Source of the DNA: Limulus polyphemus
Taxonomy: Eukaryota
NCBI RefSeq assembly: GCF_000517525.1
Contig: NW_013668828.1
Span: 33,672-54,171 of the forward strand
Reading direction: 5' to 3'
Length of the DNA stretch: 20,500 nt
Program-made: the position numbers and the translations under genes
Shown: positions 1,235 to 20,500 of the stretch, one piece after another
How the letters are laid out: every line of letters starts with the position of its first letter
Numbering within the stretch: the first letter of the stretch is position 1
Notes under the pieces: model-generated
Databases searched by the model: none
What the model saw: only the letters and a program-made list of their open reading frames with translations
What the model was told of the DNA's origin: nothing

Positions 1235-4200
1235 TTTTATGCAAAGACTATTTACTTTACATTGACTTGGTTAGACGACAATCTTTGTTAACCATTCGTG
1301 CTTAGCCCATGATTCTATCTTGTTTGAAGATAATATATACAAAAGTGGAAACCTCCATCAGTTGCTATGTATGCTGAAGATCACCTGCAATACCCATAAA
1401 AAATGTGTTCTTTGACTACTGAGGATCCCAGTATAACTGACATGGACAGAGCATTCAATCTTGGGTCATGCTATGTAATATTGTTAGTGTACAAAACTAA
1501 AATGATAAATATAATAAAAACCAAAGTTTCATTAACAACTGCAAATCTCATCAAATTAAATGCAAATAAGAAAAAAGTTGACATATCTGTCCAATGCAGT
1601 GCTAAGGAGAAGTTATCATGAGTCCCACTGGTGAAGGTTTGTTTTTGCATGATCAAATCATCATCATGTACCAGCACAATTTATGTTCACCATATGAATA
1701 TAAGTGGGAGTAAGCTCAAGGCTAGTGGCATGGAAACCTCATAGGAGATGCAAGAGACGTATAGCATTTCTGTGCGTGTTATTTTATATCAAAACCACAT
1801 CAGGCTATCTGCTGTGTCCACTTAGGGGAATAGAACCCCTGATTTTAGTGTTGTAAATCCAAAGACTTACCGCTGTCCCAAAGGGGGATGCATTTCTGTG
1901 TGAAGAGGTAGATTATCATCTCAGAAATATTTTTAAATCAACATGAGAAACAAATCCAGCTACTTTTTTAAACAATATAAAAAAAAGCAATCAAGATAAA
2001 CTTTTACTCCAATACATCTATAAGTTTTTTTTCAGTTGTACAATGTAAAAGGAACACTGATAAAACTAACTTTTGTAGTTATTCTACTAAAAATACTTAG
2101 GTTTTTCTACTGCTTTATAAACTCAAAATCTAATGATCATAACAAAATAAACCATACTAACTTTTTGCCTTTACAACTGAACAAGCAAACAGTTCCATCC
2201 TGGTAGCCTGCTACAAGGTACCTTCCAACTTGACTCAAGCTAGTTATCATTCTTCGTACTTGCAGTGCTTGTATATCTAACAGGTTTGACCCATCCTCTA
2301 GCAAGACCACCTAATAAAGTAAACATAGTATTCATTCACATAATTTTAATGCAGTTCTTTACCTATTATCTCAAAAAAATGCTATGAAAAGGACATTCTA
2401 TTTCATGCTGAACCACTGTGAAGAAAGATTAGCCTTATTACTTGAAAGCTGCATATAACAGGAGATTAGGTTAGAATATTCACAAAACTTCATGGAAATT
2501 ATTAATATTCTCTATATTGTACAGTTGTTCTTAGTGTGATGTTCTTCTGATACGTAATGTTACTTAATGCTATTCAGTTCACTGAAACTTTCAGCAATCA
2601 GATGTTGCAGAATCTGTGATTTAAAATATGATATGGATTAATAAGACAAAGTTTTTACTTAGATTTCAAATCCAAAAACTTTAGAAAAAAAAAAGCAATT
2701 TGAAGATGAAAAAAATCTGGTGTTCATTAAACATCTGTAGTTAATATATTTCAACCAACTATAATATACTTCTCACAGTATAATTTAGAATCCAAGTACA
2801 CAGGCTTGTTCAACATCACTTTTACTGAATTTATAGAAAGTTAGAACTGAGCCAAGCAGGTTCAATGCTTATATTTACACTACAAAAACTCCTGAATGGA
2901 TTACATGTAGCTCTTGATTTTACACTGCTGACAAATAAAACCAAGAATTTGGATATTGAAACCCCACCTTTATCTGTCCAGTTTTAGATGCAACACATAT
3001 TCCACATAGAGTACCAGAAGAGGGTTTCTTAAAAGAGCTAATGCAGTTGACAGAGTCTCTAACTAGCATTTTTTTCCAAAACAGAGCACCTGGTAAATAT
3101 TCGTTATACACAAAAACCTTGAGTTGTGTTTTATTTTAAAAGAAAAGAAAACAATATACGTATTCACATAAAAAAAAAGCATGCATCAATTTAACAGTAT
3201 TATTACATTCTATATTATACCAAACAAAGATAGCTAGAATATAAACAAATTATTGCAACAAAGTAAAATGTAAGAAAATAGCTCTCAAAGCTTCATTTAA
3301 GATTCTACAATTCTTAAAAGTACAACTTAAATTCAAGAAGTTATTTTCATGCAGGAATCTTCTGGATAGGTATGTATTAAAACTAAATTTTATAGGCACT
3401 TCACGCACATATGCAGGAGGAGGTTTTGAGATGGTTTGGTTGAACCCCCTATTTTTGTGATGTAAAAAAATTATGCTTATAGTTATAGAGCAGCTACTAA
3501 TGATATTTAACGTTTTCGAAATAGTCTACATTATTCTGATGAAGCATTAGCATTTTTTGCCTTGAAACAGCCGCATATACCCAGACACGCAAAGCATTAG
3601 CATGCTCTGCAAGCTGATTATGCTTCGCACAATATGTGTTGGCTTTTGATCTTGCAAATAAGAACCCCTTCCTCTTAAGCATTCTGCATATGAGCCTGCA
3701 ATTTTAGAGAGAAATGTTACCTCTTTCCATACAGGGTTAGTCGATGTAACCAACCCTTTTAACCTCAAAGTAACCATCATAGTTTCTATACTATAATGTT
3801 TAACATGTTTTACGTATCTTTACAAAATTTAGCATGCTTTTAGTAAACATTACAGGTCTTTTGCACACAAAAAATCAGATTTTTCAATTAAGTACTTTAC
3901 TCAAGATTTACCCTTGAATATAAGGAATCATGGTGTTGACTGCTCAGAATGATTTTCACGTTAATATTAAAAATACTTTTCTTCATTTGAAAATTGTAAA
4001 ATGTCATTTGCTAGAATCTCTAAAACCTCCTAAGTAAATATCAAACTTTTTTTTTCAGTAAAATTTTGTTTTATCTGTGATTTTCTCTACCCAAACTTGG
4101 TCAATTTGACCAACCTTGTAATCACCCATAAAAAAATACAAAATAAATCTAAATCTTTTTTTTTCTAGAATGACTGCAGATTCGAACAGAAAATTACAGT

Positions 4201-6196
4201 TTTTACCTTAAACAGTTTAAGACTTGTAACAGTCAACATCTGTTTATATTTAATTTTATTGTTCTATGGCTCGTTGAATTGTGTCTAACTAGTTAATCCT
4301 GCCATACAAGTTGTAAATCACTTGATGAGCACATAGCTCACATTACATTTTGAACAACGTAATGCATTAGATGTTGATGAATGTCCCTCGTGCAGATTTT
4401 TTAGGATATTATTGTTCAATATCTTACCTAATCTAACCTAAAAATTTTCTAATTTTTACATCTTAGTTACTTTTGTAACAAAATGTGAAGAATATGCACA
4501 AGAAATATAGTAACTATAATTGCCCTTTTTTTGCTGTTGGTTGCAGATGAAATTTAAGCCTACTTTTTTATACTAATTGTACTAGTACACTAAATAATAT
4601 TTATGTACTTAAATAATGCACCTAGGGACACATAATAACATTCACAAAGCAAACGATGTCCTATAACTATCATAATATAAATGGCTTTCTAACTATGCTA
4701 ACTTTTAACTGAAACAACAAAATATAATGTCATTTGATAGATTGGCACTTTATACAATACTATTCATAACCAGTAGAAAAGCAAAGTTTTAGGATTAAAG
4801 GCTATGAAAATTAGACTTTGCCTTAGTAATATCTATGTTATAATGAGCAATTTATGTCAAATGCCATACTTCACAGAATGGTGGTAAATAAATTAAAGAA
4901 AAGAGAAGACCTAGAGGACAAATGTCATGATTCTCATAAAACAAGAGTTTGAAGATTTTTTAAAATATGCCCTAATAAAATTAAGAGCTTAAAACTTAAA
5001 TAATATTAAAATTTGCTTTATTAAAAACATTTTGATACCAATTTTATTAATATTCATTGATAATAAAGTGGTTTAATTAAATTTTGAATGTAACTCTCTA
5101 AAAGATCACAGCATGCACACTCTAACCTTCCTGCAATGAGAGGGTTAATCTGCATAGACAAAAAAAATCTATACAGAGTAATTTAGACCAAACACAAAAA
5201 TGTGTCTTTAAAAACAAGTATCAATATTGTTATTTGAGAAATAATTTAATCGAAGGAAATGTGAAAATACATATATAATGTATGTAAACTTTGAAATGTT
5301 TTCATTTTTAAAATGCTAGAAGAATCCTAAAACAGCAAAAATTATGAGAACACCTTAGTGAGAAAAAATTATGCAAGTTATTTATTTTTTTCTTTTGAAC
5401 AGAGAATGAAGAAAAATAAACTTATAAAAGGAAATAATCCATTAAATGTTTACTTCATGTATAAACCTGAAAAACGGCCATTGTACAAACATATACGTGT
5501 ATGATAGAAAAATGTGATATTTCTACATCTTACATTTGAAAATAAAGTTTTGTTTACACTTCCTTATTTTTGTGTTCTTTTGTTTATTTGAGATACTTCT
5601 GCAAATTGGCACAAGGGCTAACTACACTGCCTGTTTAATTGTGAACTGAGAGATCAGAGAAAAGGCAGTTAGTCAAAAGCACCCATCAACAATTCTGGGT
5701 TACTCTAACTGAAATAGTGAGTTATGAAAATCACTTCTATAATGCACTCACAGTTCAAAAGTATGAAGCACAATTTTTTGGCAACTGGCCAAAACACAAC
5801 TTTAAGAAACATGTTTCTTTAACAATATTGGCTGATCCAATTTCTAGGTAGAAATAAGAAAAAATAAAACAAACCATAATTAAATATACCATCTATTTCA
5901 AAATTGTATGTACAATTTGTTTATGTAGTTAGAAAAATTAACAATATTTTTAGTCATTTGAGATATGTCTACAAGAAATCAAGTTCTTCAATATTTACTT
6001 AAGTTTTAATTTTTTTAATAAATTGATTTTCTTTTAGTCAAATAACATTTGAAAAATGTTTGGAAATTTCTTGTTCTAACTAAAAAATAAAAAAATGACG
6101 TTTTTAATGAAAAGAACTTTTCATATTTTAATTTATTCAGCAAAATCAAATTCACTGCTTTCTCTGCAACTGAAGGTTAGAGTATTAATTGTGAAA

Positions 6197-6450: not shown

Positions 6451-9400
6451 CTGGAGCAAGTAGTTCGTATAAATATTAAATAGATTATAAAGAGTTTTAT
6501 ATTAGAGATATTTTATGGAACCAAAACAAAAAATAGTATGACACAATCCAACATGAATTTTAACAAAGCTAAACATTATGTCTACAACATAAAGTAAAAA
6601 AATAAAATTATTTAAAGCAAATTTATCAACTATAATCTGTAACCTTTAGAAATTCTACACATAAGCAAGCACTGTGAATTCTTCAAAACAAACTTTCTAA
6701 ACCTTATGAAACAAAAAAAAATTTTTTAATGCTTCATCTACCATTTTCAAATAATTTCTAATAAAAATTCAAAAACATTATGCATAAGTATTTACAGCAC
6801 AATATCTGTAAATATTGTCACAAAGAAATGTGGTAACTTCAAATAAATTATTTCATCAACTTGGATTTTGACATTAGACTTCTCGCACACCAGGTGAGTG
6901 CTCTTTCAACTAAGCTAAAGGATTAACCCACTAGTACTTTTTAACAACTCAAGTTACTAAAGAATGTTTGGTAAGCTGCATACAGTACCTGTGTACTTAC
7001 TCTATTACAGATATTTTCTTCATAGTCTAATTAGGTTAGGTTTTCGTTGATTTTTACCTTTTTGTGTATCAAACAGACAGACTTCTCCAGTTTCTTGTCC
7101 AACAGCAACATAAGAAATATCCAAAAAGATCATACAAGTTGGAGTTGAAGATAAAACTGATTGAGGTATGGTGTGTACAACAGCCTTGCTGTAACTGATC
7201 CATACCTGCAATTATAGCAATTTTAAAACATTTAATACAGAAACTCTAGGGGGGGAAACTTCATAATTATGTGATGATAAGCTGATTAGGACAGTAGCAG
7301 TTATTTCTTGTTTTGATACAGATAAAAACTAAAAACTCGGCACTTTAGGAAAGACAATATTAACAAACTATGGGGTGTTATTTTAAAAGACAAATTAACA
7401 ATAAGCACAGCTCTAAAACAACAGCTGTAACATAGTAAAATCTTTACTAAAAATAATGTAAAGTTATATTTCTGAGCATTATATCCAAAACAAAGTTAAT
7501 TTTCACATGATCAGGAGGCAAAAGCTTTCTAAATGTAATATTTCAAAGCATAGCCAAGAAATACATTTAAATCTCTGTGAAAGAATTTGGAAAAAAAGAA
7601 ATTAATTAAGTATTCATTAGAATTGTGATAATAGTATGTAAAGATATCACATATTTCAATACTTTAATGCCAAATACCTTTAAGGTTCTATCTTTACTCC
7701 CTGTGATCATAATGTCCTCCGAAATTGAAAAAGATGCACATGTGACAGGAAGAATATGACCTTCCATTTTACCAATCTGAAAAGTGTCAAAACACTAACA
7801 ATTATTAATGATGACAAGAAACCCACTTGAAGTAAAAATGTATAGCAGAGACGGTTGGTATGGGTATTAAAAACTTTAATTAAAATAAAGTACAAGAACA
7901 ACGTTTCAACCTTCTTAAGTCATCATCATTTGTACTTTATTTAATTAAAGTTTTTAATACCCATACCAACCGTCTCTGCTATACATTAACAATTATTATT
8001 ATTATTTCATTTTTGTTTTCTTAAGAAATTTTGGTCCAAGTCTGCATAATAATCTTACTTACAAAACTTCCACTGTTTTTAGTTTGCAGAGTTAATAATT
8101 TTACTGGGATAAGTTCAAAGCCTTCAAGTAATACCATCATGATAGTGTACATAAAGACAAACAAAAAGAATAAAAAACATATTCTGGAGCTGCCAATTTA
8201 ACATTTTTGACATGAGGCTGACATGCCATTCTGTACATTGGTTACAAACCAACCATGAGAACGTACAGCTAGAGCTGGTGATAAACTGAACAAATACCTC
8301 TTCACCAGATAATAACCTTACAAAAAAACATGGAGATAAAATGCACATAACAATAAACAAAGGCAAAATAATCTTTTATTTTTGGCTTATGGTCATGTTC
8401 TGTTTTTTTTTAAAGTCCAACAAAGTTTCTATGTGTGAGTAATTTAGAAGATGAAGTACTACAATCCCCTTCACTAAACCTGAGTCAAAAACTTAGATGT
8501 TTAATTGTTTAGTAGTATGAATACTATTTATTATATGTAAGTAATGTAGCAGATGAAGTACTACAATCCCCTTCACCAAACCTGAGTCAAAAACTTAGAT
8601 TTTTAATTGTTTAGTAGTATGAATACTATATATTATATGTGAGTAATGTAGCAGATGAAGTACTACAATCCCCTTCACCAAACCTGAGTCAAAAACTAAG
8701 ATTTTTAATTGTTTAGTAGTATGAATACTATTTATTATATGCGAGTAATGTAGCAGATGAAGTACTACAATCCCCTTCACCAAACCTGCTGTAAATACAT
8801 TTATTACTAGTGAAGTGTACTAAGCTACATCTCAAAATGATGTTATTGCCATGAATATTTCTTATCATTGTATCTATTTGTTTGAGAAATGCCAACCTGA
8901 AGTAACTAAACAGGAAATTACACTTTTAATCTAGTGCAAGAATAACCCATGATTTATCTAATAATAATAATAATGAGCTGAATAAAAATAAATAAGTTAT
9001 AAGTTCACTAACCCGAGTACCTTGAGATGCTGACCACAGGAATACTTCCATTCTGGATGATGATGACACAATATGTTGACCACTAGTGCTAAAAGCCACA
9101 AATTGCACAGACCCTTTATGACCATGGAGGATCTAAGAAAATTATATGATACTTTAATAACAGCAATGTCTGACAAGTCCATTGACTTCATACTCATTCA
9201 AGGTGTCCACAAAACTATACTAATTACTATATTCTTTGGTGTCAGTTCCATATGTTTTACCTCTGCTCTGCCTATACAACAAATCACAACTGGTATAAAT
9301 TGGTTCAAACCTGCTTTTACAATAAATACACACAACAACAACAACAAAGATTAACACACATGCTTAAAAACACAATCGGTGAAATTCCTAATAGTTACAA

Positions 9401-12400: not shown

Positions 12401-14309
12401 TTATATCTATGCAGTTCAACAAAGTTTAAAGCTAATAGCTAAGAGAAGTTGTATTTTTCCCATAAATTTAACTGTGAATTTATAATATTTTAGTTTATTC
12501 ATAAGTCTCTTTCATTTTATTGTTTTGTCTGGTCAAGGTTGTATGTAAATCTGACATTATAAATTATATTTAAATATATAATTGGAATAATTTATTTATA
12601 ATACTCTGAGTTTCTAAATAATTCATTTCAGACTATAACTTTCACTGTGAGAAATGTCTTTTGTTAATTCTAAAAGACAACACTTTGTAATAGGTGATTC
12701 CTCAGATATTGATTTGCTAAAAAAAGTTAAATATTTTCTTACCTATATCCTCTTGTTATGTCCCACAAACATAAGCTTTTATCTACTGAAGAACTGCATA
12801 ACTTGTCATTTCCCACAAAACATATACTTGTTATTTTCTGAATGTGGCCTGTTAATGTACGTTTTATCTGTAACAAAGATATTGAAGATATTAAGAACAG
12901 TAACTATTTCTACAGGAGAGTAGCAGCATATACTCTTGTAAACAATCCCAAAAATCAGGTACTAAGTGTTGAATCAAATCGATGACAATGTACACCTACA
13001 AATCATCATCAGCTAAATTTATTTCTTAAGCATGGTTTAGTATTACAGCATGTGACAGCCAGCAAGGTAATAATCTATTTTAATAAACCCCAAACTTTAC
13101 AATTGAAATGTACTAATTGTTCATTTATTATCCAAAAAAAATATATTCTCCAACACAAAGTCCTACTTAAAAGTGGAGTTATCTGCACTAGCAGTTTCTT
13201 AACCCTCTCACTATAGGTCTTCCTATAGGTCAGGGGTCAAAGGGCATGCCATCATGTTTGTAGACTTACATTCAAAATTTTATTGATCTACTATTTTATG
13301 AATGTATGCCAATATGTTTGGTATCACATTGTACATTATAATTCTAATTTTAGTATTATATATATTAGTTAATTTCTTAATTTAAAAGCAACTATAAAAA
13401 CAAAATTCATAAATATCAATTTTTGTGTGTCACATGATATATTTAATGCAGCTTTGATTCGAATTAGATGTTTGTGATGTACAAATTCTATAGTTTCTTA
13501 TGAATTAAAAACTCAAATTACTGATATTGACAAGCTAGAATATAAAATAAAACTTCCTTTTTTTCTTCTGAGATATCACTACATTTAGTAAATCAAACAC
13601 AGTGGGCCCCGCCCACCTCTTTCATTTTTGGCTTGCTTACGTACACCTACTCTGTCTATGACGTGTAAATAACCAAGTAAAAGCTCAGAATGTCTTCCAC
13701 ATTGTTTTCTCAGCCTCTAGGAGGTTGAAAGTTCCCAAGATTATTTCTTTGTTTCGGATCTTGGAAGGAATGGGTAAGTGAAAATTTTGTCCAAAACACA
13801 ATATTTTTTTTTACCCAAATACAGTTTAGTTAGTAAGTCTGATAAATTACGCTGGATTACTGCAATATCAATAGTCATTTATAGTATTTGGTTCTTTCAA
13901 AATGCATATATAAAACCTAAAAAAAAATATTTTCTTTTACATCCTCCACGTGAAAAATTTGACAAGGCTTACCAAATTACGACAAGCAGGCAAACAAGTA
14001 AAAAGTTTGTAAGTAGAAAAAATCATTGTTTTTCTATATTTCTTTATATACTGTTCTATGTTTTAAGAAAACTAATCCAAATTTTATAACTTATTTGTAA
14101 AGATAATAATATATATACATATATAATGTATTATAACTGAAACGCGACTGTATTTTACAAAATACTGGTCCACTAGAACAAACCGTAGACAGATCAATTT
14201 GTAAAAGCCAATTTTATACTATTGAATACAGTTACACGAGTGCACCGAGCCGCATCAATGCAACTTTTGTAATGTTAGTTAGACAGAGCTTAAAGGTCAA
14301 TAAAATAAA

Positions 14310-14344
<35 letters not shown>

Positions 14345-15780
14345 TGTATAATGTTATGAGATTTAAGCTATTTAGAGTAAACATTTATGGATTCTTGTTA
14401 TAATTTGTAGTCATTCAAGAACAAAAAATGTGTAATTTATATCCATTTCCTAATTTTTTACGTTGGTTATGAGGTCAGTCAAATAGACTAAACTCATACA
14501 GAGATACAATAGTGAAATAACAGATAAAATATAAAGTTCTTTCAAAAACAAAACGTTTGATAATTATCTGGTGGTTATTAGGAGGTTATAACTTGACAAT
14601 TTTCTGATGCATAAAAGTATTTTTAATCTTAAAATCAAAATTATTGTTTTTTGGATAGTCAAAATTCTAAAAATAAAAAAAATGTGCAGGCAACTCATTG
14701 CTTCAAAAATCTTAAAACTTAATAAACAAAATCAGATATATTGTGTACTAAAGCCTTGTATTGTTTACTGATAATCTTTAAAATTTTGTGAAGATACACA
14801 TACTGCATTAAAAGTCATAGTATGAAAACTATAACAAGCACCAAATAGTACGAAATTGGTCCCTGGGACAGAGCATGTAGTGAGAGAGTAAATTTTGAAC
14901 TGAAAAACTAAAGGGATGGCAGCTAGTCAGAATTACCCACTGAAGGATGTCATCTAGTCAGAATCTCCTACTTAGAGAAGGCAGCTAGTTAGTATTACCC
15001 ACTGCCATCTCTTTGGTTAGTCTTATCAAAGTGGAATTTGAAGTTACTTTTATAATGTACTCATGGCCCTAAAGTGCAGAGCATGGTTTTACTGCAACAC
15101 TAGACCACTGCTGGTGCCATTTGAAAAAAAACTAACAAAGGCACTCAAAGTGGTACCAAGGTTTAGCCTATATTCCTGTGAGATATGCAAGTTATTTTCT
15201 TATGCAGAATATTTATGATGACTACTTAGGAAGGAAATTCACAACGACAGTGATACTCATATAGATGAGATTGTAAATTTTTGCTGTATTTTGATGGCTT
15301 AATCTTATTATTAATTGTCATACTGGAACATCTGATTATAGATAGTTTTTTTACCTCCCATGCTAGAATTATTCAGGAGAGCAGTCAGATCAAGGAGTAA
15401 AACACTAAATCAGAAAATAACAGTAAGACCACTGTTATACAATCTCATATTGTCATGTGAACAAATAAATAATACACTTGCGTTTTCCTCTCCAGAACTT
15501 TTCTCACAAATTTCTCGATCAAATGATACAAATCTCATATCATAAGAAAGGCCTTTATCCTACTAGTCTGGATTGCATATTGGCTTTTCCATTTAGAATC
15601 ATCTTACCTGTTTTAACATTACATCCACCTTAAAAGGCTGCACATTTGACACAGATCTCAAAATCATAAAAAAAAAGCACTTACAGAACCAGTTTGGACA
15701 TCTATAAGTCTTATTACACCATCCTGTCCTCCTAAACCAGCAATATCACCCTTCCTTGAAACTGCCAGACACTGTATTGG
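6305..15780 (-). CDS. Gene-level span of a multi-exon WD40-repeat (beta-propeller) protein gene; the 9 exons are listed separately and the 5' end probably lies further upstream
   Basis: Eight exons with canonical AG/GT boundaries join in phase, and their conceptual translation contains at least 7 WD40-type blades (GH...WD-like units). See the individual exon entries. Confidence 0.75.
6848..6935 (-). repeat. Degenerate tRNA-like SINE head fragment
   Basis: The minus strand reads 'gggttaatcctttagcttagttgaaagagcactcacctggtgtgcgagaagtctaatgtcaaaatccaagtt'. It has a D-arm-like 'TAGCTTAGTTGAAAGAGC' and 'ATCCAAGTT' resembling the B-box region of the SINE heads at 18720-18789. Similarity is weak. 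Confidence 0.2.
7058..7205 (-). CDS. WD40 gene coding exon (phase 0 start, 1 nt carried out)
   Basis: Minus acceptor is 'ttgctataattgcag|GTATGG' and donor is 'CAAAAAG|GTAAAAAT'. It encodes [49 protein letters not shown](+G). It joins the upstream exon as ...GSKDRTLK|VWI..., a classic WD blade end. Confidence 0.7.
7678..7776 (-). CDS. WD40 gene coding exon (99 nt, phase 0/0)
   Basis: Minus acceptor is 'cttttcag|ATTGGT' and donor is 'CTTAAAG|GTATTTGG'. It encodes [33 protein letters not shown], a GH...TGSxDxTxK WD repeat. Confidence 0.75.
7837..7987. repeat. Near-perfect ~150-bp palindrome (two ~57-bp arms, ~36-bp loop); MITE/foldback-like hairpin in an intron
   Basis: Left arm 'aatgtatagcagagacggttggtatgggtattaaaaactttaattaaaataaagtaca' is at 7837-7894. 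Right arm 7931-7987 is its reverse complement, with one 1-nt indel (aaaat versus aaat). The loop is 'agaacaacgtttcaaccttcttaagtcatcatcatt'. Confidence 0.8.
8063..8121 (-). CDS. WD40 gene coding exon (59 nt; starts with 2 nt completing Gly codon, ends phase 0)
   Basis: Minus has a long polypyrimidine tract 'ttttttattctttttgtttgtctttatg...cttgaag|GC' and donor 'AGTTTT|GTAAGT'. With the carry-in G from exon 9021-9132 it encodes [20 protein letters not shown]. It is the only stop-free frame, and its phase matches both neighbours. Confidence 0.6.
8431..8787. repeat. Intronic tandem repeat, about 3.5 copies of a 102-104-bp unit
   Basis: Unit 'atgt(g/a)(a)agtaatgtagcagatgaagtactacaatccccttcac(c/t)aaacctgagtcaaaaacttagat(t/g)tttaattgtttagtagtatgaatactat(t/a)tattat' starts at 8431, 8535, 8637 and 8739. 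The minus ORF 8595..8783 is a read-through of this array. Confidence 0.85.
9021..9132 (-). CDS. WD40 gene coding exon (112 nt, phase 0 start, 1 nt carried out)
   Basis: Minus acceptor is 'tttcttag|ATCCTC' (AG from plus 9133-9134) and donor is 'CTCAAG|GTACTC'. It encodes [37 protein letters not shown](+G), a textbook WD blade (GH..V..VAFS..G..IVS.S.D..V.LW). An in-frame TAG lies immediately upstream of the acceptor. Confidence 0.8.
9486..9594 (-). CDS. WD40 gene coding exon (109 nt; 1 nt completes Lys codon, ends phase 0)
   Basis: Minus acceptor is 'tttatgttttag|GAAACC' and donor is 'AAAGCA|GTGAGT', a consensus donor. It encodes (K)[36 protein letters not shown]. Confidence 0.85.
10767..10916 (-). 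CDS. WD40 gene coding exon (150 nt; phase 2-type start, 2 nt carried out)
   Basis: Minus acceptor is 'tatcttttttttttggttgttactacag|AATTGG' and donor is 'CAGAACAA|GTAAGG'. It encodes (R)[49 protein letters not shown](+AA). The upstream exon's AG plus A gives Arg. The carried AA plus G of the next exon gives Lys. Plus-strand ORF 10679..10906 is its antisense shadow. Confidence 0.85.
11220..11478 (-). mobile_element. tRNA-derived SINE copy (intronic, same orientation as the host gene)
   Basis: Minus-strand head is 'cctgggattagtatggccttgtggttagtatgccaagctgtggtttggaaggttcaaagcctgagtc', with an A-box-like TGGTTAGTA and a B-box-like GGTTCAAAGCC. The body 'gcctctgtaaatgctctgcactttc...ctgactagcag' is homologous to 14900-15118 and to the other SINE copies. 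Confidence 0.55.
12743..12867 (-). CDS. WD40 gene coding exon (125 nt, phase 0 start, 2 nt carried out)
   Basis: Minus acceptor is 'cttaatatcttcaatatctttgttacag|ATAAAACG', with an in-frame TAG just upstream, and donor is 'GGATATAG|GTAAGA'. It encodes [41 protein letters not shown](+AG). The junction with exon 15685-15780 reads ...LIDVQTGS|IKRTLTGH..., a canonical WD blade boundary. Plus-strand ORF 12654..12923 is its antisense shadow. Confidence 0.85.
13596..13775 (+). promoter_or_regulatory. CpG-containing promoter-like module plus a putative first exon of a plus-strand transcript (ATG-G followed by GTAAGT), nested in the 2.8-kb intron of the WD40 gene
   Basis: Read directly: GC/Sp1-like box 'gtgggccccgcccacc' at 13602-13617; CRE-like 'tgacgtgt' at 13659-13666; TATA-like 'taaataacc' at 13666-13674; ATG at 13770-13772 in 'ggaaggaATGGgtaagtg', with a consensus GTAAGT donor directly after ATG-G. 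CpG is clustered locally in otherwise CpG-poor DNA. The minus strand has no ATG-containing ORF here, only a GTAAGC donor at about 13635-13640. Confidence 0.35.
14314..14342. repeat. (TA)14 microsatellite
   Basis: atatatatatatatatatatatatatata, read directly. Confidence 0.9.
14826..15120 (-). mobile_element. tRNA-derived SINE copy (intronic, sense to host gene) with an internal ~25-bp motif present 3 times
   Basis: Homologous to the 17846-18064, 18512-18789 and 11220-11478 copies ('ggcagctagt.a...cccactgcca.ctcttgg...' and '...aaagtgcagagcat...'). The motif 'ggcagctagtcagaattacccactg' occurs 2.5 times (14910-14934, 14972-14996, and partially 14940-14960). Confidence 0.55.
15685..15780 (-). 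CDS. WD40 gene coding exon (96 nt, phase 0/0); most upstream exon identified
   Basis: Minus acceptor is 'ctctctttctgtag|CCAATACAG' and donor is 'GGTTCT|GTAAGTGC', a consensus donor. It encodes [32 protein letters not shown]. Confidence 0.8.
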
Positions 15781-15888
15781 CTACAGAAAGAGAGACAGAA
15801 TAACTGAAGTACAAATACTAATTAGTCTTAATATGAGAAATAAGAACCAACTACATAGATGTAAAAACATTATAACTGACCAAATAAA

Positions 15889-16300
15889 GACAGGAGTTTT
15901 ATAGAATATCTTTGGGTTTTAATGATTAAGGTTTTGTTTTTTAAAAGATTTTATTCAATGTTAAAACCATAACAGGAGTTTTATAGAATATCTTTGGGTT
16001 TTAATGATCAAGGTTTTGTTTTTAAAAGATTTTATTCAATGTTAAAACCATAACAGGAGTTTTATAGAAGATCATTGGGTTTTAATGATCAAGGTTTTGT
16101 TTTTTAAAAGATTTTATTCAATGTTAAAACCATAACAGGAGTTTTATAGAATATCATTAACATTGAATAAAATCTTTTAAAAAACAAAACCTTGATCATT
16201 AAAACCCAAAGATATTCTATAAAACTCCTGTTATGGTTTTAACATTGAATAAAATCTTTTAAAAAACAAAACCTTGATCATTAAAACCCAAAAACCAAAA
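15889..16300. repeat. Composite palindromic array: about 3.1 direct copies of an ~88-bp unit (15889-16158) followed by about 1.6 inverted copies (16159-16300)
   Basis: Direct units 'acaggagttttatagaatatc(t/a)ttgggttttaatgat(t/c)aaggttttgtttt(t)taaaagattttattcaatgttaaaaccata' start at 15890, 15972 and 16063. From 16159, 'aacattgaataaaatcttttaaaaaacaaaaccttgatcattaaaacccaaagatattctataaaactcctgttatggttttaacattg...' is the reverse complement. The predicted foldback has a stem of up to about 140 bp and a loop of about 30 nt. Confidence 0.85.
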
Positions 16301-17845
16301 GTTGTATGTAACTAAGAAAATAACAAAAATCCAGGACCATAATGCTGGATTAGACTAAAGATTTTTTTACCATGTTAATGTTTTTATACAAACAAAGAAA
16401 GCTTTAGTACTGGGTTAGAAAATAGATGATGAATGTTACAAAAAATAAAGACTGCCAAAAGAGTATTGCTTTATATTTGAAAAACTTTCAGAAAAACTGT
16501 TAAAAATGAAGGAAAAAAAATCAAGTTTACCATAACTTTAACATCGCTTCATACTACAATGTATGTATAGTACAAGGTACTTGTATAGCTTCAAGTCTGT
16601 TTTACTGGGTCAAATACATTATTATACAATTCCAAAAGGAATATCAATGAACCTATGTGTATTTCACCGAGTTAATTTGTTAATAATATAATGATTACTT
16701 TTATAATTACAGGGTTACTTACAAAAACAAAGACTATATGTTTCTGAATTATTAATTAAAAATAGTTATTACACATATTTTACTTATTTAAATTTTACTA
16801 ACCAATAACCTCCTTTGGAGTTATTATTTCAGTGTTTCTATATGTTTTTCAGATAAAAGCTCTATACACATTCTACATAAACAGAGAACAGTTATACAAG
16901 TACAAGCCTATATTTTAATTTATAATAGCTTGTACATGAAGATGAATAGGTGCTAATAAGGCCTCTTGGTTGCTCACCTTTAATCATGGAAAAATTGTTC
17001 TACAACTTCATAAGTTATATTTCTTCCCATAAAATATGACCGTATGAGGAAAAGCCATAAAAACAACCTTTCCATCAGCATCTTAAGACATTAATGGCAA
17101 GACATAAAGATAAGCTTATATGTGCAGCTGTAGGAACTACTTACCTCTCTGAATTCAGATAATGTCAACCTAAGGGGTTCAGGGAACTGAGGCCTTGTTA
17201 ACCAGTGGATGGCCCAAGCCGATGTATTTTGTACTGCATCAGTATACACGCACGAAGAGTCTGGTTCATTAAGGGCCTGTTGTCGTACCAAACTGGGGTA
17301 CCTTTGAACACCCAAAACAAATATATATCTTAATTTATATACCAAAGTTCTTGTCAGTGTATCATTTTAATATTTAATAGATACTTTATGTGAAAATTCC
17401 AAATTTACTAACTATTGTTGTGAAGTTATAATTTATAAATAATAAAACATTCAGATGTTAAAGTTTTTCCACCATTTTATAGCTGTTTTACTTTTCATTT
17501 GTGATTAAATGTATAATATTACTGTAAGAATTTCAAAGAATATCATTTCATGCTTGTTTTTTACAGCACATAAGTTTACTGTTTGATGTTTCTAACGTAA
17601 AACTCTTCTTGTAGGCGCTATTGTGAAATTATATACGTAATAACATCTTTGCAATAGGCATTTCTGCTTTCGTTATAAGCAGTCTGGTACATACAGAAAA
17701 CTCACTATGTATGTGGTATATGCAGGCACACTATGTGTTTCTTACATATTATATAGGTAGTGCTTGCATCCTTAGAATAGTAGTATTATTGTTTAATGTA
17801 CAAAATGATGTATTTACTTAATCAGAAACAGCTTTGGTTTTAGAT

Positions 17846-18064
17846 TTTTTCTGCAAAGTTTGCTTGAGGGTTATCTCCACTTCTCATCCATAATTTAGAA
17901 ATGACAGACTAGAGGAACGGCAGCTAGTCAACACTATCCACCATCTCTTAGGCTATTTTAATCGAATACTGGCATAGAATGTCAAATTATAACATCCCCC
18001 ACGGCTGATAGGACGAGAATGTTTGGTGATGGGATTTGAACCCGTTACCCGTAAAGGTGTCACA
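17846..18064 (-). mobile_element. tRNA-derived SINE copy (sense to host gene)
   Basis: Minus-strand head is 'gtgacacctttacgggtaacgggttcaaatcccatcaccaaacattctcgtcctatcagccgtggggg...', with B box GGTTCAAATCC. The body 'ggcagctagtcaacactatccaccatctcttaggc' and the tail are homologous to 18512-18789. Confidence 0.6.
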
Positions 18065-18511
18065 AAATAAACTTTTAATTTGATTAATTTGTTTGGGTGT
18101 TCAGTAAAGGTTGTTTCAGTGTGTTTCACTTTGTTTCCACTCTTTCTTTACTTTGAATTTAGTTGAGGTCAGAGAATTCAGATTCACACCATAATACATT
18201 TTCTGTTGAAACCTCCTTATGTTCTGTGGCTCTTATTCAAATAATCTTAGATGGAAATCAGTGAACATGTGAAGACCACATGTTCCTTGAATTTTACTGG
18301 ACCATGGCAAATCAAAAGGGTTACTGATCAGGGTTGGAATACCCCAAAACTGATATAACTCGGTGACAAGTGGTAAATCAAATGATAGATTAAGCTTCAA
18401 ATTTATTTTTTAGTATTTTAAAAAGTTTGTCAGCTGAATAATTCAGAAGAATAAATTAGTAGCATCAATGATGCTTATTCTTGAAATTCCTATATAAATA
18501 TAAGATAACTG

Positions 18512-18789
18512 TTGGTTTGTTCGTTTTGAATTTCGTGCAAAGCTACATAAGGGCTATCTGTGCTAGCCATCCCTAATTTAGCAATGTAAGACTAGAGGGA
18601 AGGCAGCTAGTCATCACCACCCACTGCCAACTCTTGGGCTACTCTTTTACCAACGAATAGTGAGATTAACCATCACATTATAATGCCCCCATGGTGGAAA
18701 GAACAAGCATGTTTGATGGGACGGGGATTCGAACTTGCAACCCTCAGATTGCGAGTCGAGCACTCTAACCACCTGGCTAGGCTGGGCCC
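18512..18789 (-). mobile_element. tRNA-derived SINE copy, most complete (tRNA-like head, conserved body, 'gtagctttgcacgaaattcaaaacgaacaaacc' tail)
   Basis: Minus-strand head is 'GGGCCCAGCCTAGCCAGGTGGTTAGAGTGCTCGACTCGCAATCTGAGGGTTGCAAGTTCGAATCCCCGTCCCATC'. It has an A-box-like TAGCCAGGTGG and a B-box-like AGTTCGAATCC. It is followed by a tRNA-unrelated body shared with the three other copies. Confidence 0.7.
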
Positions 18790-19046
18790 TAAGATCACTG
18801 TCTGAGTATAAGACATATCAAAACACCATACATATAATGCTTCTCGCTAACAAAACAAAAAGCAACACAAACATGGTAAGTAACACTGAAATGGAATAAT
18901 ACATTTTCAGGTATGATGTGCCATATTTACAATTTTTCTTAAACAGTAGCACAAAAACATCATTTACATTCTATTTAAAATTAATGTGCAATGGTATTAG
19001 AACTGCGAGCATAAACATAGAAATGATTTTGATGTTGGAGATGCAT

Positions 19047-19617
19047 ACTGTAAATATTATATCCTCAATGACTGAGGAGTGTGATAACACCTCTTATACC
19101 ACACTGTAAATATTATATCCTCAATGACTGAGGAGTGTGATACACACCTCTTATACCACACTGTAAATATTATATCCTCAATGACTGAGGAGTGTGAAAA
19201 TACCTCTTATACCACATTGTAAATATTATATCCTCAATGACTTAGGAGTGTGATAACACCTCTTATACACCCCCTTAAATATTATATCCTCAATGACTGA
19301 GGAGTGTGATAACACCTCTTATACCACACTGTAAATCAGTCATTGAGGATATAATATCTACAGTGTATCTGTTTCAATCATTATTTTTGAAGTGTACAAG
19401 TATGTTTTGTGTATATCACTCTACTGATATTTAATTGTCCATTTACATTTGAGTACTACTATCTATGATTTTGTCATTGTGAAATGCAATAATAAATTGT
19501 TTCTTGACCATGAAGCAGAGAGGTGAGAAGTGTGGTATAAGAGGTGTTTTCACACTCCTCATTTATTGAGGATATAATATTTACAGTGTGGTATAAGAGG
19601 TGTTATCACACTCCGTA
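19047..19617. repeat. Tandem array of 5 copies of a ~57-bp unit (19047-19335), followed by a short inverted partial copy (19336-19365) and, after a ~160-bp spacer, 2 inverted copies (19526-19617)
   Basis: Unit 'actgtaaatattatatcctcaatgactgaggagtgtgataacacctcttataccac' starts at 19047, 19103, 19160, 19218 and 19273. 'cagtcattgaggatataatat' and 'gtggtataagaggtgtt(t/a)tcacactcctca(t/g)t(t/c)attgaggatataatatttacagt' are its reverse complement. Plus-strand ORF 18918..19109 is a read-through of this array. Confidence 0.85.
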
Positions 19618-19649
19618 TATAAAAAAATCAACACTACATTTTTATTATT

Positions 19650-19993
19650 TTAGTAGGAAGTTATGCTCAAAACTACTAACCTCAACAAAATGTGAAGGTT
19701 TCGAGATATAAACTGGTAGTAAGCTGAAACTTTTTTGTTCAAATTCTCATCTTTGTTAAATGTTTTTACTGTTGATATCCCAGTGATAAGCAAAGAGTTG
19801 AAATTGTCCAGCAAGCATGATCCTTGACCAAGTCGAAAATAAGCCTCAATAAAGCTGAGGTCACAGAAGATTTCTGATAGATATTTAGTGCAAGATGCCC
19901 TGCATAAATGGTATGGAAGGGCCTGAAAAGCTTCTGGCCATTTACCTGTCCAGGTTTTAGAGCCTTGAGGGTCAGCCTTATGTAACATTAGAG
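19650..19993 (-). CDS. Coding exon of an uncharacterised protein, probably a 3'-terminal exon; may belong to a separate upstream gene or to the 5' part of the WD40 gene
   Basis: A 124-codon open frame in about 30% GC DNA, with locally raised GC. The minus strand has a strong acceptor 'tatattttattttag|CTCTAATG' (AG from plus 19994-19995). The in-frame stop is at 19650-19652, with AATAATAAAA on the minus strand about 10-25 nt downstream. An internal consensus donor 'ACAG|GTAAAT' and 'TTGAG|GTTAGT' are alternative exon ends. The product reads ...LMLHKADPQGSKTWTGKWPEAFQALPYHLCRASCTKYLSEIFCDLSFIEAYFRLGQGSCLLDNFNSLLITGISTVKTFNKDENLNKKVSAYYQFISRNLHILLRLVVLSITSY*. I do not recognise any family. Confidence 0.4.
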
Positions 19994-20295
19994 CTAAAAT
20001 AAAATATATTAAATATATGGCCAAATTAACTAATGAACCTAATAATTTTTAACTTGAAGCTCAGTCAGTTAGAAACTACAGTAAAAAAAAAGTATTTAAG
20101 GCATGAAAACCCAATATTATTAAATAATTACTCATTTCATTAATGATGGTCTAGATTTCAAAGTTTTTGTTCAAAAAAAAAGAAGAATAAAAATAGCAAC
20201 ACACAATATAATTTATATACAATCCTTTCAATAATTGGTACAGAATATTTAATACTATTAGAAAAATGAGAAATACATAAATTACAAAAACAGTT

Positions 20296-20470
20296 TGTAT
20301 ACAGCTACAAGCAGTGGTGGGATTCAGCCGGTTCGCACGAACCTGTTCTTAGAATTTAATGACCTCCACGAACCGGTTGTTAACAATCGTATGTATAGGC
20401 CTAATAATAACGTTACAACTTACAAGTATGCGTGTTTACAGCGCAACTTTACCTAGCAGGCTAGGCGGAC
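20296..20470. promoter_or_regulatory. CpG-rich motif cluster at the window edge (candidate promoter or 5' region of the minus-strand gene containing exon 19650-19993, or of a gene beyond the window)
   Basis: It holds 11 CpGs in about 170 bp, against near absence elsewhere. 'CACGAACC' is repeated at 20337-20344 and 20378-20385. The 'AACCGGTT' palindrome is at 20382-20389. The inverted pair is 'ccggttcg' (20326-20333) and 'cgaaccgg' (20380-20387). Confidence 0.3.
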
Positions 20471-20500
20471 TAGGTCTACTAGATCTCTGATGAATCATTT

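Follow-up and report, generated by a model that had tools for sequence, protein, structure and literature searches.

Does a gene begin inside the intron of another gene with a first exon that holds only a start codon and one further nucleotide? The question is raised by a 20,500-nt stretch of Limulus polyphemus DNA (contig NW_013668828.1, positions 33,672 to 54,171 of the forward strand; hereafter the window, in whose numbering all positions are given). Here a block of promoter-like motifs at 13596-13779 lies on the plus strand, within an intron of a minus-strand WD40 gene, and ends in ATGG followed directly by a GTAAGT splice donor. The original prediction proposed, among other options, that the block is the promoter and ATG+G first exon of a nested plus-strand protein-coding gene. 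That gene model did not hold. What is new in this analysis is that the block is the 5' part of a longer non-coding segment, M1 (13441-14275, 835 bp), which stands between the two arms of an old dispersed repeat. We tentatively read the block and M1 as a non-coding promoter- or enhancer-like element that was inserted and/or is unmethylated, a reading to which we give somewhat less than an even chance.

The motif block and the segment that contains it

The first motif of the block is a GC-rich inverted repeat (GTGGGCCCCGCCCAC, 13602-13616), GTGGGC-CCC-GCCCAC, in which 6-bp arms flank a central CCC. Inside it lies a GC box of the Sp/KLF/EGR type (13607-13614; plus strand CCCCGCCC, minus strand TGGGCGGGGC). 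This is followed by TTACGTAC (13637-13644), an ACGT-core site resembling a PAR-bZIP (proline and acidic amino acid-rich basic leucine zipper) site; it matches seven of the eight positions of TTAYGTAA, which we take to be the PAR-bZIP consensus. A further site on the plus strand, TGACGTGT (13659-13666), is a half-site of the cAMP response element (CRE) and also resembles an unfolded protein response element (UPRE). The block ends on the plus strand with the junction ATGG|GTAAGT (ATGGGTAAGT, 13770-13779), where the ATG has a good Kozak context (a purine at -3 and G at +4) and the consensus donor follows at once. The GC box, the CRE-like site, the TAAATAA heptamer and the junction were all found where they had been predicted; the spacing from the TATA-like heptamer to the ATG, given as about 95 nt, had to be corrected to 98-104 nt.

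For a core promoter, the pattern sought was TATAWAW about 30 nt upstream of a YYANWYY initiator (Inr). The TATA-like heptamer TAAATAA (13666-13672, plus strand) has one mismatch to TATAWAW, and the Inr-like CCACATT (13697-13703, plus strand) places its A at 13699, 33 nt downstream of the TATA-like position 13666. This pairing is a common combination in DNA of 30% GC. As an initiator of the TCT/terminal oligopyrimidine (TOP) type, the putative plus-strand start offers only a weak one.

How unusual are these motifs? In the 41 kb formed by both strands of the window, GGGCGG/CCGCCC occurs a single time, compared with 0.18 occurrences per dinucleotide shuffle, and the 15-mer at 13602-13616 is the most GC-rich of the window (13/15). 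TGACGT occurs twice and TGACGTGT once. The composite of GC box, CRE half-site, TATA-like heptamer and ATG-donor junction appeared in none of 1000 shuffles, a count that belongs to a pattern defined post hoc. TAAATAA occurs 24 times and therefore carries little weight, and ATG.?GTRAGT is present at four places on the plus strand, the ATGG|GTAAGT at 13770 among them. In the literature searched, the GC-box string turned up only in unrelated contexts, as primers or sites, and pattern scans of viral and prokaryote collections gave no matches.

The window has the base composition of AT-rich eukaryotic DNA (GC about 30%) and is strongly depleted in CpG throughout, with 124 CpG at an observed/expected ratio (o/e) of 0.26 and a GpC o/e of 1.04. 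The description of the window as CpG-poor therefore stands, but the concentration of CpG in the block had been overstated: its 180 bp hold 4 CpG (o/e 0.48, GC 43%), and nine further windows of that length, none of them overlapping, also hold at least 4 CpG. There are 23 places where 3 CpG cluster within 55 bp.

It could thus be asked whether the block is a chance cluster of motifs in neutral intronic DNA. The post hoc pattern and the counts for TAAATAA, for ATG-donor junctions and for 3-CpG clusters all favor such an origin, as does the folding of the 185-nt block, which is not significant (z = -1.2 and -1.7). Chance fares poorly, however, with the rarity of the GC box and with the composite that no shuffle reproduced. 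It also does not account for the surrounding segment, which was defined by homology and is independently enriched in CpG (P about 1e-3 without the block). Overall, we consider a chance cluster distinctly unlikely.

The boundaries of that segment, M1, were set from repeat homology and not from CpG content. Self-comparison of the window showed that its two flanks are arms of an old dispersed repeat with a second locus at 3779-5147, to which they are colinear and inverted. The left arm (13200-13440) is about 67% identical to the reverse complement of 4922-5147 and has no CpG at all within 13244-13440; the right arm (14276-14832), which includes AATAAA and a (TA)n run, is about 62% identical to the reverse complement of 3779-4291. 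Neither the block nor M1 has a counterpart in the second copy, where an unrelated 630-bp middle stands instead, and the idea that the block is part of the flanking repeat was rejected on this ground. The paired structure of 3779-5147 and 13200-14832 suggests either a non-autonomous element whose core varies or middles that were replaced independently.

M1 is single-copy in the window and carries 14 CpG (o/e 0.74, GC 30%), compared with an o/e of 0.16 in the rest of the intron and 0.23 in the middle of the second repeat copy (Poisson P = 6e-4). The excess persists when the block is left out (P = 0.001-0.008), and M1 is among the 900-bp windows of lowest TG+CA excess. The CpG signal thus belongs to the wider 835-bp segment, not to the motif block, and M1 is discrete non-coding DNA with a history different from that of its flanks and with less CpG decay. 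Neither is a CpG island under the criteria of a length of at least 200 bp, GC of at least 50% and CpG o/e of at least 0.6, the block having 180 bp, 43% and 0.48 and M1 835 bp, 30% and 0.74, respectively.

M1 has a second feature on the plus strand. Three of the seven plus-strand GTAAGT sites of the window fall within 240 nt (13774, 13833 and 14009), and all three lie in a tract of about 750 nt (13546-14299) that is free of AATAAA and ATTAAA. Outside tandem repeats, this is the only place on the plus strand where a 520-nt window holds at least three U1-type sites and neither poly(A)-signal motif.

A possible active element or inert insertion

How could such a segment have come about, and what might it do? 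M1 may have arrived later than its flanks, as a transposon- or duplication-derived fragment, and/or it may have been kept unmethylated in the germ line through factor binding as an intragenic promoter or enhancer. If it is active, it would be a factor-binding platform, either as an enhancer within the intron or as a cryptic promoter in plus orientation that makes a non-coding antisense RNA. The GC box and the bZIP sites would recruit activators. RNA polymerase II would be positioned by the TATA-like/Inr-like pair at 13666/13699, and transcripts would extend to about 14.3 kb through the three GTAAGT sites and the poly(A)-signal-free tract.

Some features fit a promoter of a long non-coding RNA (lncRNA), an enhancer or an alternative promoter, as the original prediction had also allowed; these are the reduced CpG decay over 835 bp, the cluster of U1-type sites and the tract free of poly(A) signals, all of them read from the sequence. 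The unique GC palindrome, the two ACGT-core sites and the U1-rich, poly(A)-signal-free tract make us lean toward a plus-oriented promoter-like element. The absence of M1 from the second repeat copy, together with a CpG retention that is roughly uniform and off-centre from the block, leans toward a younger insertion.

A younger inserted fragment explains the same features as the regulatory readings do, and it need not be active. M1 could be an inert insertion, such as a non-autonomous transposon or a duplicated fragment, whose CpGs have not yet been lost and whose motifs are inherited baggage. That M1 is missing from an otherwise colinear second repeat copy is consistent with this, and so are the even spread of CpG retention over M1 with no peak at the block, the coincidence of some other CpG-richer patches with SINE-like (short interspersed nuclear element) repeats at about 17.8-18.8 kb, and the lack of any coding or RNA-family signal. 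An inert insertion leaves unexplained, however, the unique GC palindrome, the two bZIP-type sites and the U1-site cluster, and the usual traces of insertion are missing in the window. No second copy of M1 was found there, a search for a target-site duplication or terminal repeat around M1 gave nothing convincing, and there are no long terminal repeat (LTR) ends, transposable element (TE) protein remnants or poly(A) tail. An A-rich/(TA)n run does occur at 14299-14350, but as part of the flanking repeat, and is therefore not a poly(A) tail of M1. In addition, the site is not empty in the second repeat copy, which has a different middle. We judge the inert insertion possible, though on the unlikely side.

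Several of these observations also weigh against the promoter- or enhancer-like element that we tentatively prefer. With a second copy and insertion hallmarks missing, the insertion is no more than putative, and the occupied middle of the second repeat copy is a misfit with simple insertion. CpG o/e is higher in the 550 bp after the block (0.94) than in the block (0.48), and retention is thus not centred on the putative promoter. The U1-site cluster and poly(A)-signal-free tract are only marginally unusual, the tract being the fourth-longest gap among 81 plus-strand poly(A)-signal motifs. To these must be added that the composite motif pattern was written after inspection and that a younger insertion explains the same features. 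Finally, that M1 was inserted or became hypomethylated, that factors bind it and that it is transcribed at all are steps that we infer, and function is purely so.

Coding and RNA-gene readings

If the block were the start of a protein-coding gene, exon 1 would be ATG+G and would be spliced from 13773/13774 to an exon 2 on the plus strand at 15367-15545, yielding a basic peptide of 60 amino acids; the acceptor had originally been placed at about 15358 and the product given as 63 amino acids. In its favor, the ATG in good Kozak context is directly followed by a perfect GTAAGT, a strong phase-compatible acceptor (tttttttacctcccatgctag|AA) is present at 15366/15367 and is followed by 59 codons and a stop, and AATAAA/ATTAAA motifs lie downstream. 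Among 34 candidate acceptors, the phase-1 acceptor at 15367 opens the longest run of open codons. Against this, a 59-codon phase-compatible open reading frame (ORF) behind one of 34 pyrimidine-rich AG acceptors is expected about 0.3 times by chance, and stop-to-stop ORFs of at least 61 codons number 44 in the window.

The proposed exon 2 was judged non-coding. Its score for codon position, trained on the exons of the host gene, is -0.047 per codon, compared with +0.144 for the host exons, and G occupies codon position 1 in 13% of its codons versus 28% in the host exons. No Pfam match was found in the plus frames of 12868-20500, nor in the minus frames of 13200-14420 around the block. An exhaustive search of 1.84 billion representative proteins with the 61-amino-acid ORF returned no real homologue; there were only two weak matches (E > 1e-4), of which the one inspected, P0121, proved to be a junk ORF of tandem repeats. 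We therefore regard a nested plus-strand coding gene of this structure as very improbable.

Other ways of reading a protein from the block were no more successful. Without splicing, the ATG at 13770 gives M-G-K-stop. Directly after the donor begins a plus-strand frame of 103 codons (13778-14086); just one other ORF in the window reaches 100 codons. This frame was considered and rejected: it lacks an ATG, is out of frame with the ATG at 13770 and scores -0.17 per codon. Its Pfam matches are noise below threshold (DUF5683, E = 0.009), and splicing into it through an acceptor at 13824/13825 leads to an immediate stop. A gene of the ribosomal-protein type, with its ATG at the end of the first exon, was likewise dismissed, as no conserved exons follow downstream on the plus strand.

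Most likely, no protein-coding nested gene starts at the block and the ATG-G|GTAAGT junction is incidental. A broader proposal is that an orphan promoter in the Apaf-1-like host gene would drive a spliced antisense transcript, either with the ATG+G exon and a lineage-specific basic micropeptide of 60 amino acids or as an lncRNA that would regulate the host; we hold this to be highly doubtful.

Could the block instead belong to an RNA gene? Rfam 15 gave no match in the whole window at gathering thresholds and only noise at E <= 10 for 13300-14300, and ARAGORN reported nothing near the block. Around the donor, an AU-rich, imperfect inverted repeat of 47 nt (13771-13817, plus strand; TGGGTAA...TTACCCA) is capable of forming a hairpin and holds both the donor and an Sm-like AAAATTTTG. 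A fold of 117 nt (13699-13815) has z = -2.47, and shorter folds are not significant. A structured RNA or microRNA (miRNA) was rejected, as the folds of the block are not significant and only this hairpin is present. A type-3 gene of RNA polymerase III was also rejected, a TTTT run being found by inspection about 6 nt past the start predicted from the TATA-like heptamer.

The junction also invites comparison with spliced-leader (SL) RNA genes. Flatworm spliced leaders end in AUG, and a short 5' mini-exon ending in AUG(G), a donor and an Sm site (AAAAUUUUG) could be recognized here, with AAAATTTTG 3 nt after ATGG|GTAAGT and promoter-like motifs upstream; the leader on the mRNA would end in ...GGAAGGAATGG. 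Yet the Sm-like AAUUUUG is paired in the predicted hairpin rather than single-stranded between stems, no SL family of Rfam is matched even at E <= 10, the window has no other copy of the locus, and an exon starting where the TATA-like heptamer implies would be about 75 nt, which is too long. The spliced-leader reading was rejected, and the chance that it is right is close to negligible.

The host gene and known systems

What gene surrounds the element? The minus strand of the window carries a multi-exon WD40 gene, and upstream of its WD40 exons a 132-codon open exon (19653-20048, minus strand) matches Pfam APAF1_C (E = 7.6e-5, which passes the curated cut-off). Because an exon for the APAF1_C helical domain precedes those for WD40, the host gene is identified as Apaf-1-like, a kind of gene that points to an animal source. 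In the collections searched, a close relative of the host protein was not found; the best identity was 34% in a protein search and 41% in a metagenome scan, look-ups of exact ORFs matched no record, and a word-index search of 5.8 billion proteins yielded no homologue of the APAF1_C exon.

The WD40 exon upstream of the intron lies at 15780-15685 on the minus strand, with canonical splice sites ctgtag|CCAATACAG...GGTTCT|gtaagt, and the downstream WD40 exon at 12867-12743, also with canonical sites (ttacag|ATAAAACG...GGATATAG|gtaaga). These sites confirm the predicted 2.8-kb intron (12868-15684), and the plus-strand motif block lies wholly inside it, antisense to the host.

Further observations concern the rest of the window. 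CpG is densest at 20320-20499, with 10 CpG in 180 bp, and 200-bp windows starting at 20201-20281 reach a CpG o/e of 1.1-1.3; this patch, located just upstream of the APAF1_C exon, could be either a repeat of recent origin or a region free of methylation. Host introns contain four tandem-repeat arrays with 92-96% matches, at 8430-8788, 15890-16155, 19047-19336 (with an inverted copy at 19529-19614) and 1066-1231, whose units are 102, 82, 56 and 82 bp, respectively. The 102-bp array generates repeated plus-strand ATG...GTGAGT/GTAAGT pseudo-donor sites.

Dispersed repeats are also present. The intron that holds the block contains a SINE-like element (14808-15125) with three 31-nt tandem units (14914-15004) related to a SINE body at 18596-18646; its part at 15060-15125 (minus strand) is a putative tRNA-like head, recognized by eye, and 14808-14892 resembles 12-97. 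A tRNA-derived SINE with the head GGGCCCAGCCTAGCCAGGTGGTTAGAGTGCTCGACTCGCAATCTGAGGGTTGCAAGTTCGAATCCCCG occupies 18520-18810 on the minus strand and has a related copy at 17848-18028; a peptide derived from the 18520-18810 region had no match in the protein collection. ARAGORN called a tRNA-Cys with the unusual anticodon ACA at 1816-1887 (minus strand), which probably represents the head of a SINE or a tRNA pseudogene. Finally, the inverted repeats 179-304 and 600-725 (126 bp, 82.5% identity, about 300 bp apart) resemble a miniature inverted-repeat transposable element (MITE) or a foldback element.

What would the element in the intron mean for its host? The main value of the analysis is negative, in that the gene model with an ATG-only first exon fails and the CpG signal proves to be that of a wider segment. 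As it stands, the element is a routine, ordinary candidate regulatory or inserted element. Were it an active antisense promoter or enhancer in a gene of the apoptosome type, it could modulate the expression of its Apaf-1-like host, and it would add another case of a regulatory patch that stays unmethylated within a gene, in a genome heavily depleted in CpG.

Several known systems offer a comparison. Genes nested in introns on the opposite strand include OMG, EVI2A and EVI2B in NF1, F8A in intron 22 of F8 and a pupal cuticle gene in Drosophila Gart. Like these, the block lies wholly within a host intron, in antisense orientation and with a promoter-like region of its own; unlike them, it is not followed by a clear conserved ORF, the downstream frames having neither homology nor coding composition. 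In many ribosomal-protein genes the ATG stands at, or almost at, the 3' end of the first exon. The resemblance to these lies in an ATG that closes a short, non-coding putative first exon and has a consensus donor next to it, whereas conserved coding exons downstream are absent here and the TCT/TOP-like initiator is weak.

Promoters in introns can also derive from transposons, as with solo LTRs and with the 5' untranslated region (UTR) or antisense promoters of long interspersed nuclear elements (LINEs). M1 differs from these in having no detected LTR ends, target-site duplication, terminal repeats, TE protein remnants or second copy in the window. It is similar to them as a younger-looking insertion between older repeats, with a compact cluster of GC box, bZIP sites and TATA-like heptamer and no host coding function. 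Within methylated gene bodies, intragenic "orphan" promoters and enhancers reportedly remain unmethylated (Illingworth et al. 2010; Maunakea et al. 2010). From these the element, known here from its sequence, differs in that the block and M1 both fall outside the definition of a CpG island and the CpG retention is not centred on the motifs. Yet it is like them in being a sub-kilobase, CpG-retaining patch within a gene body that carries Sp- and bZIP-type sites, is oriented opposite to the host gene and has U1-type sites downstream of it.

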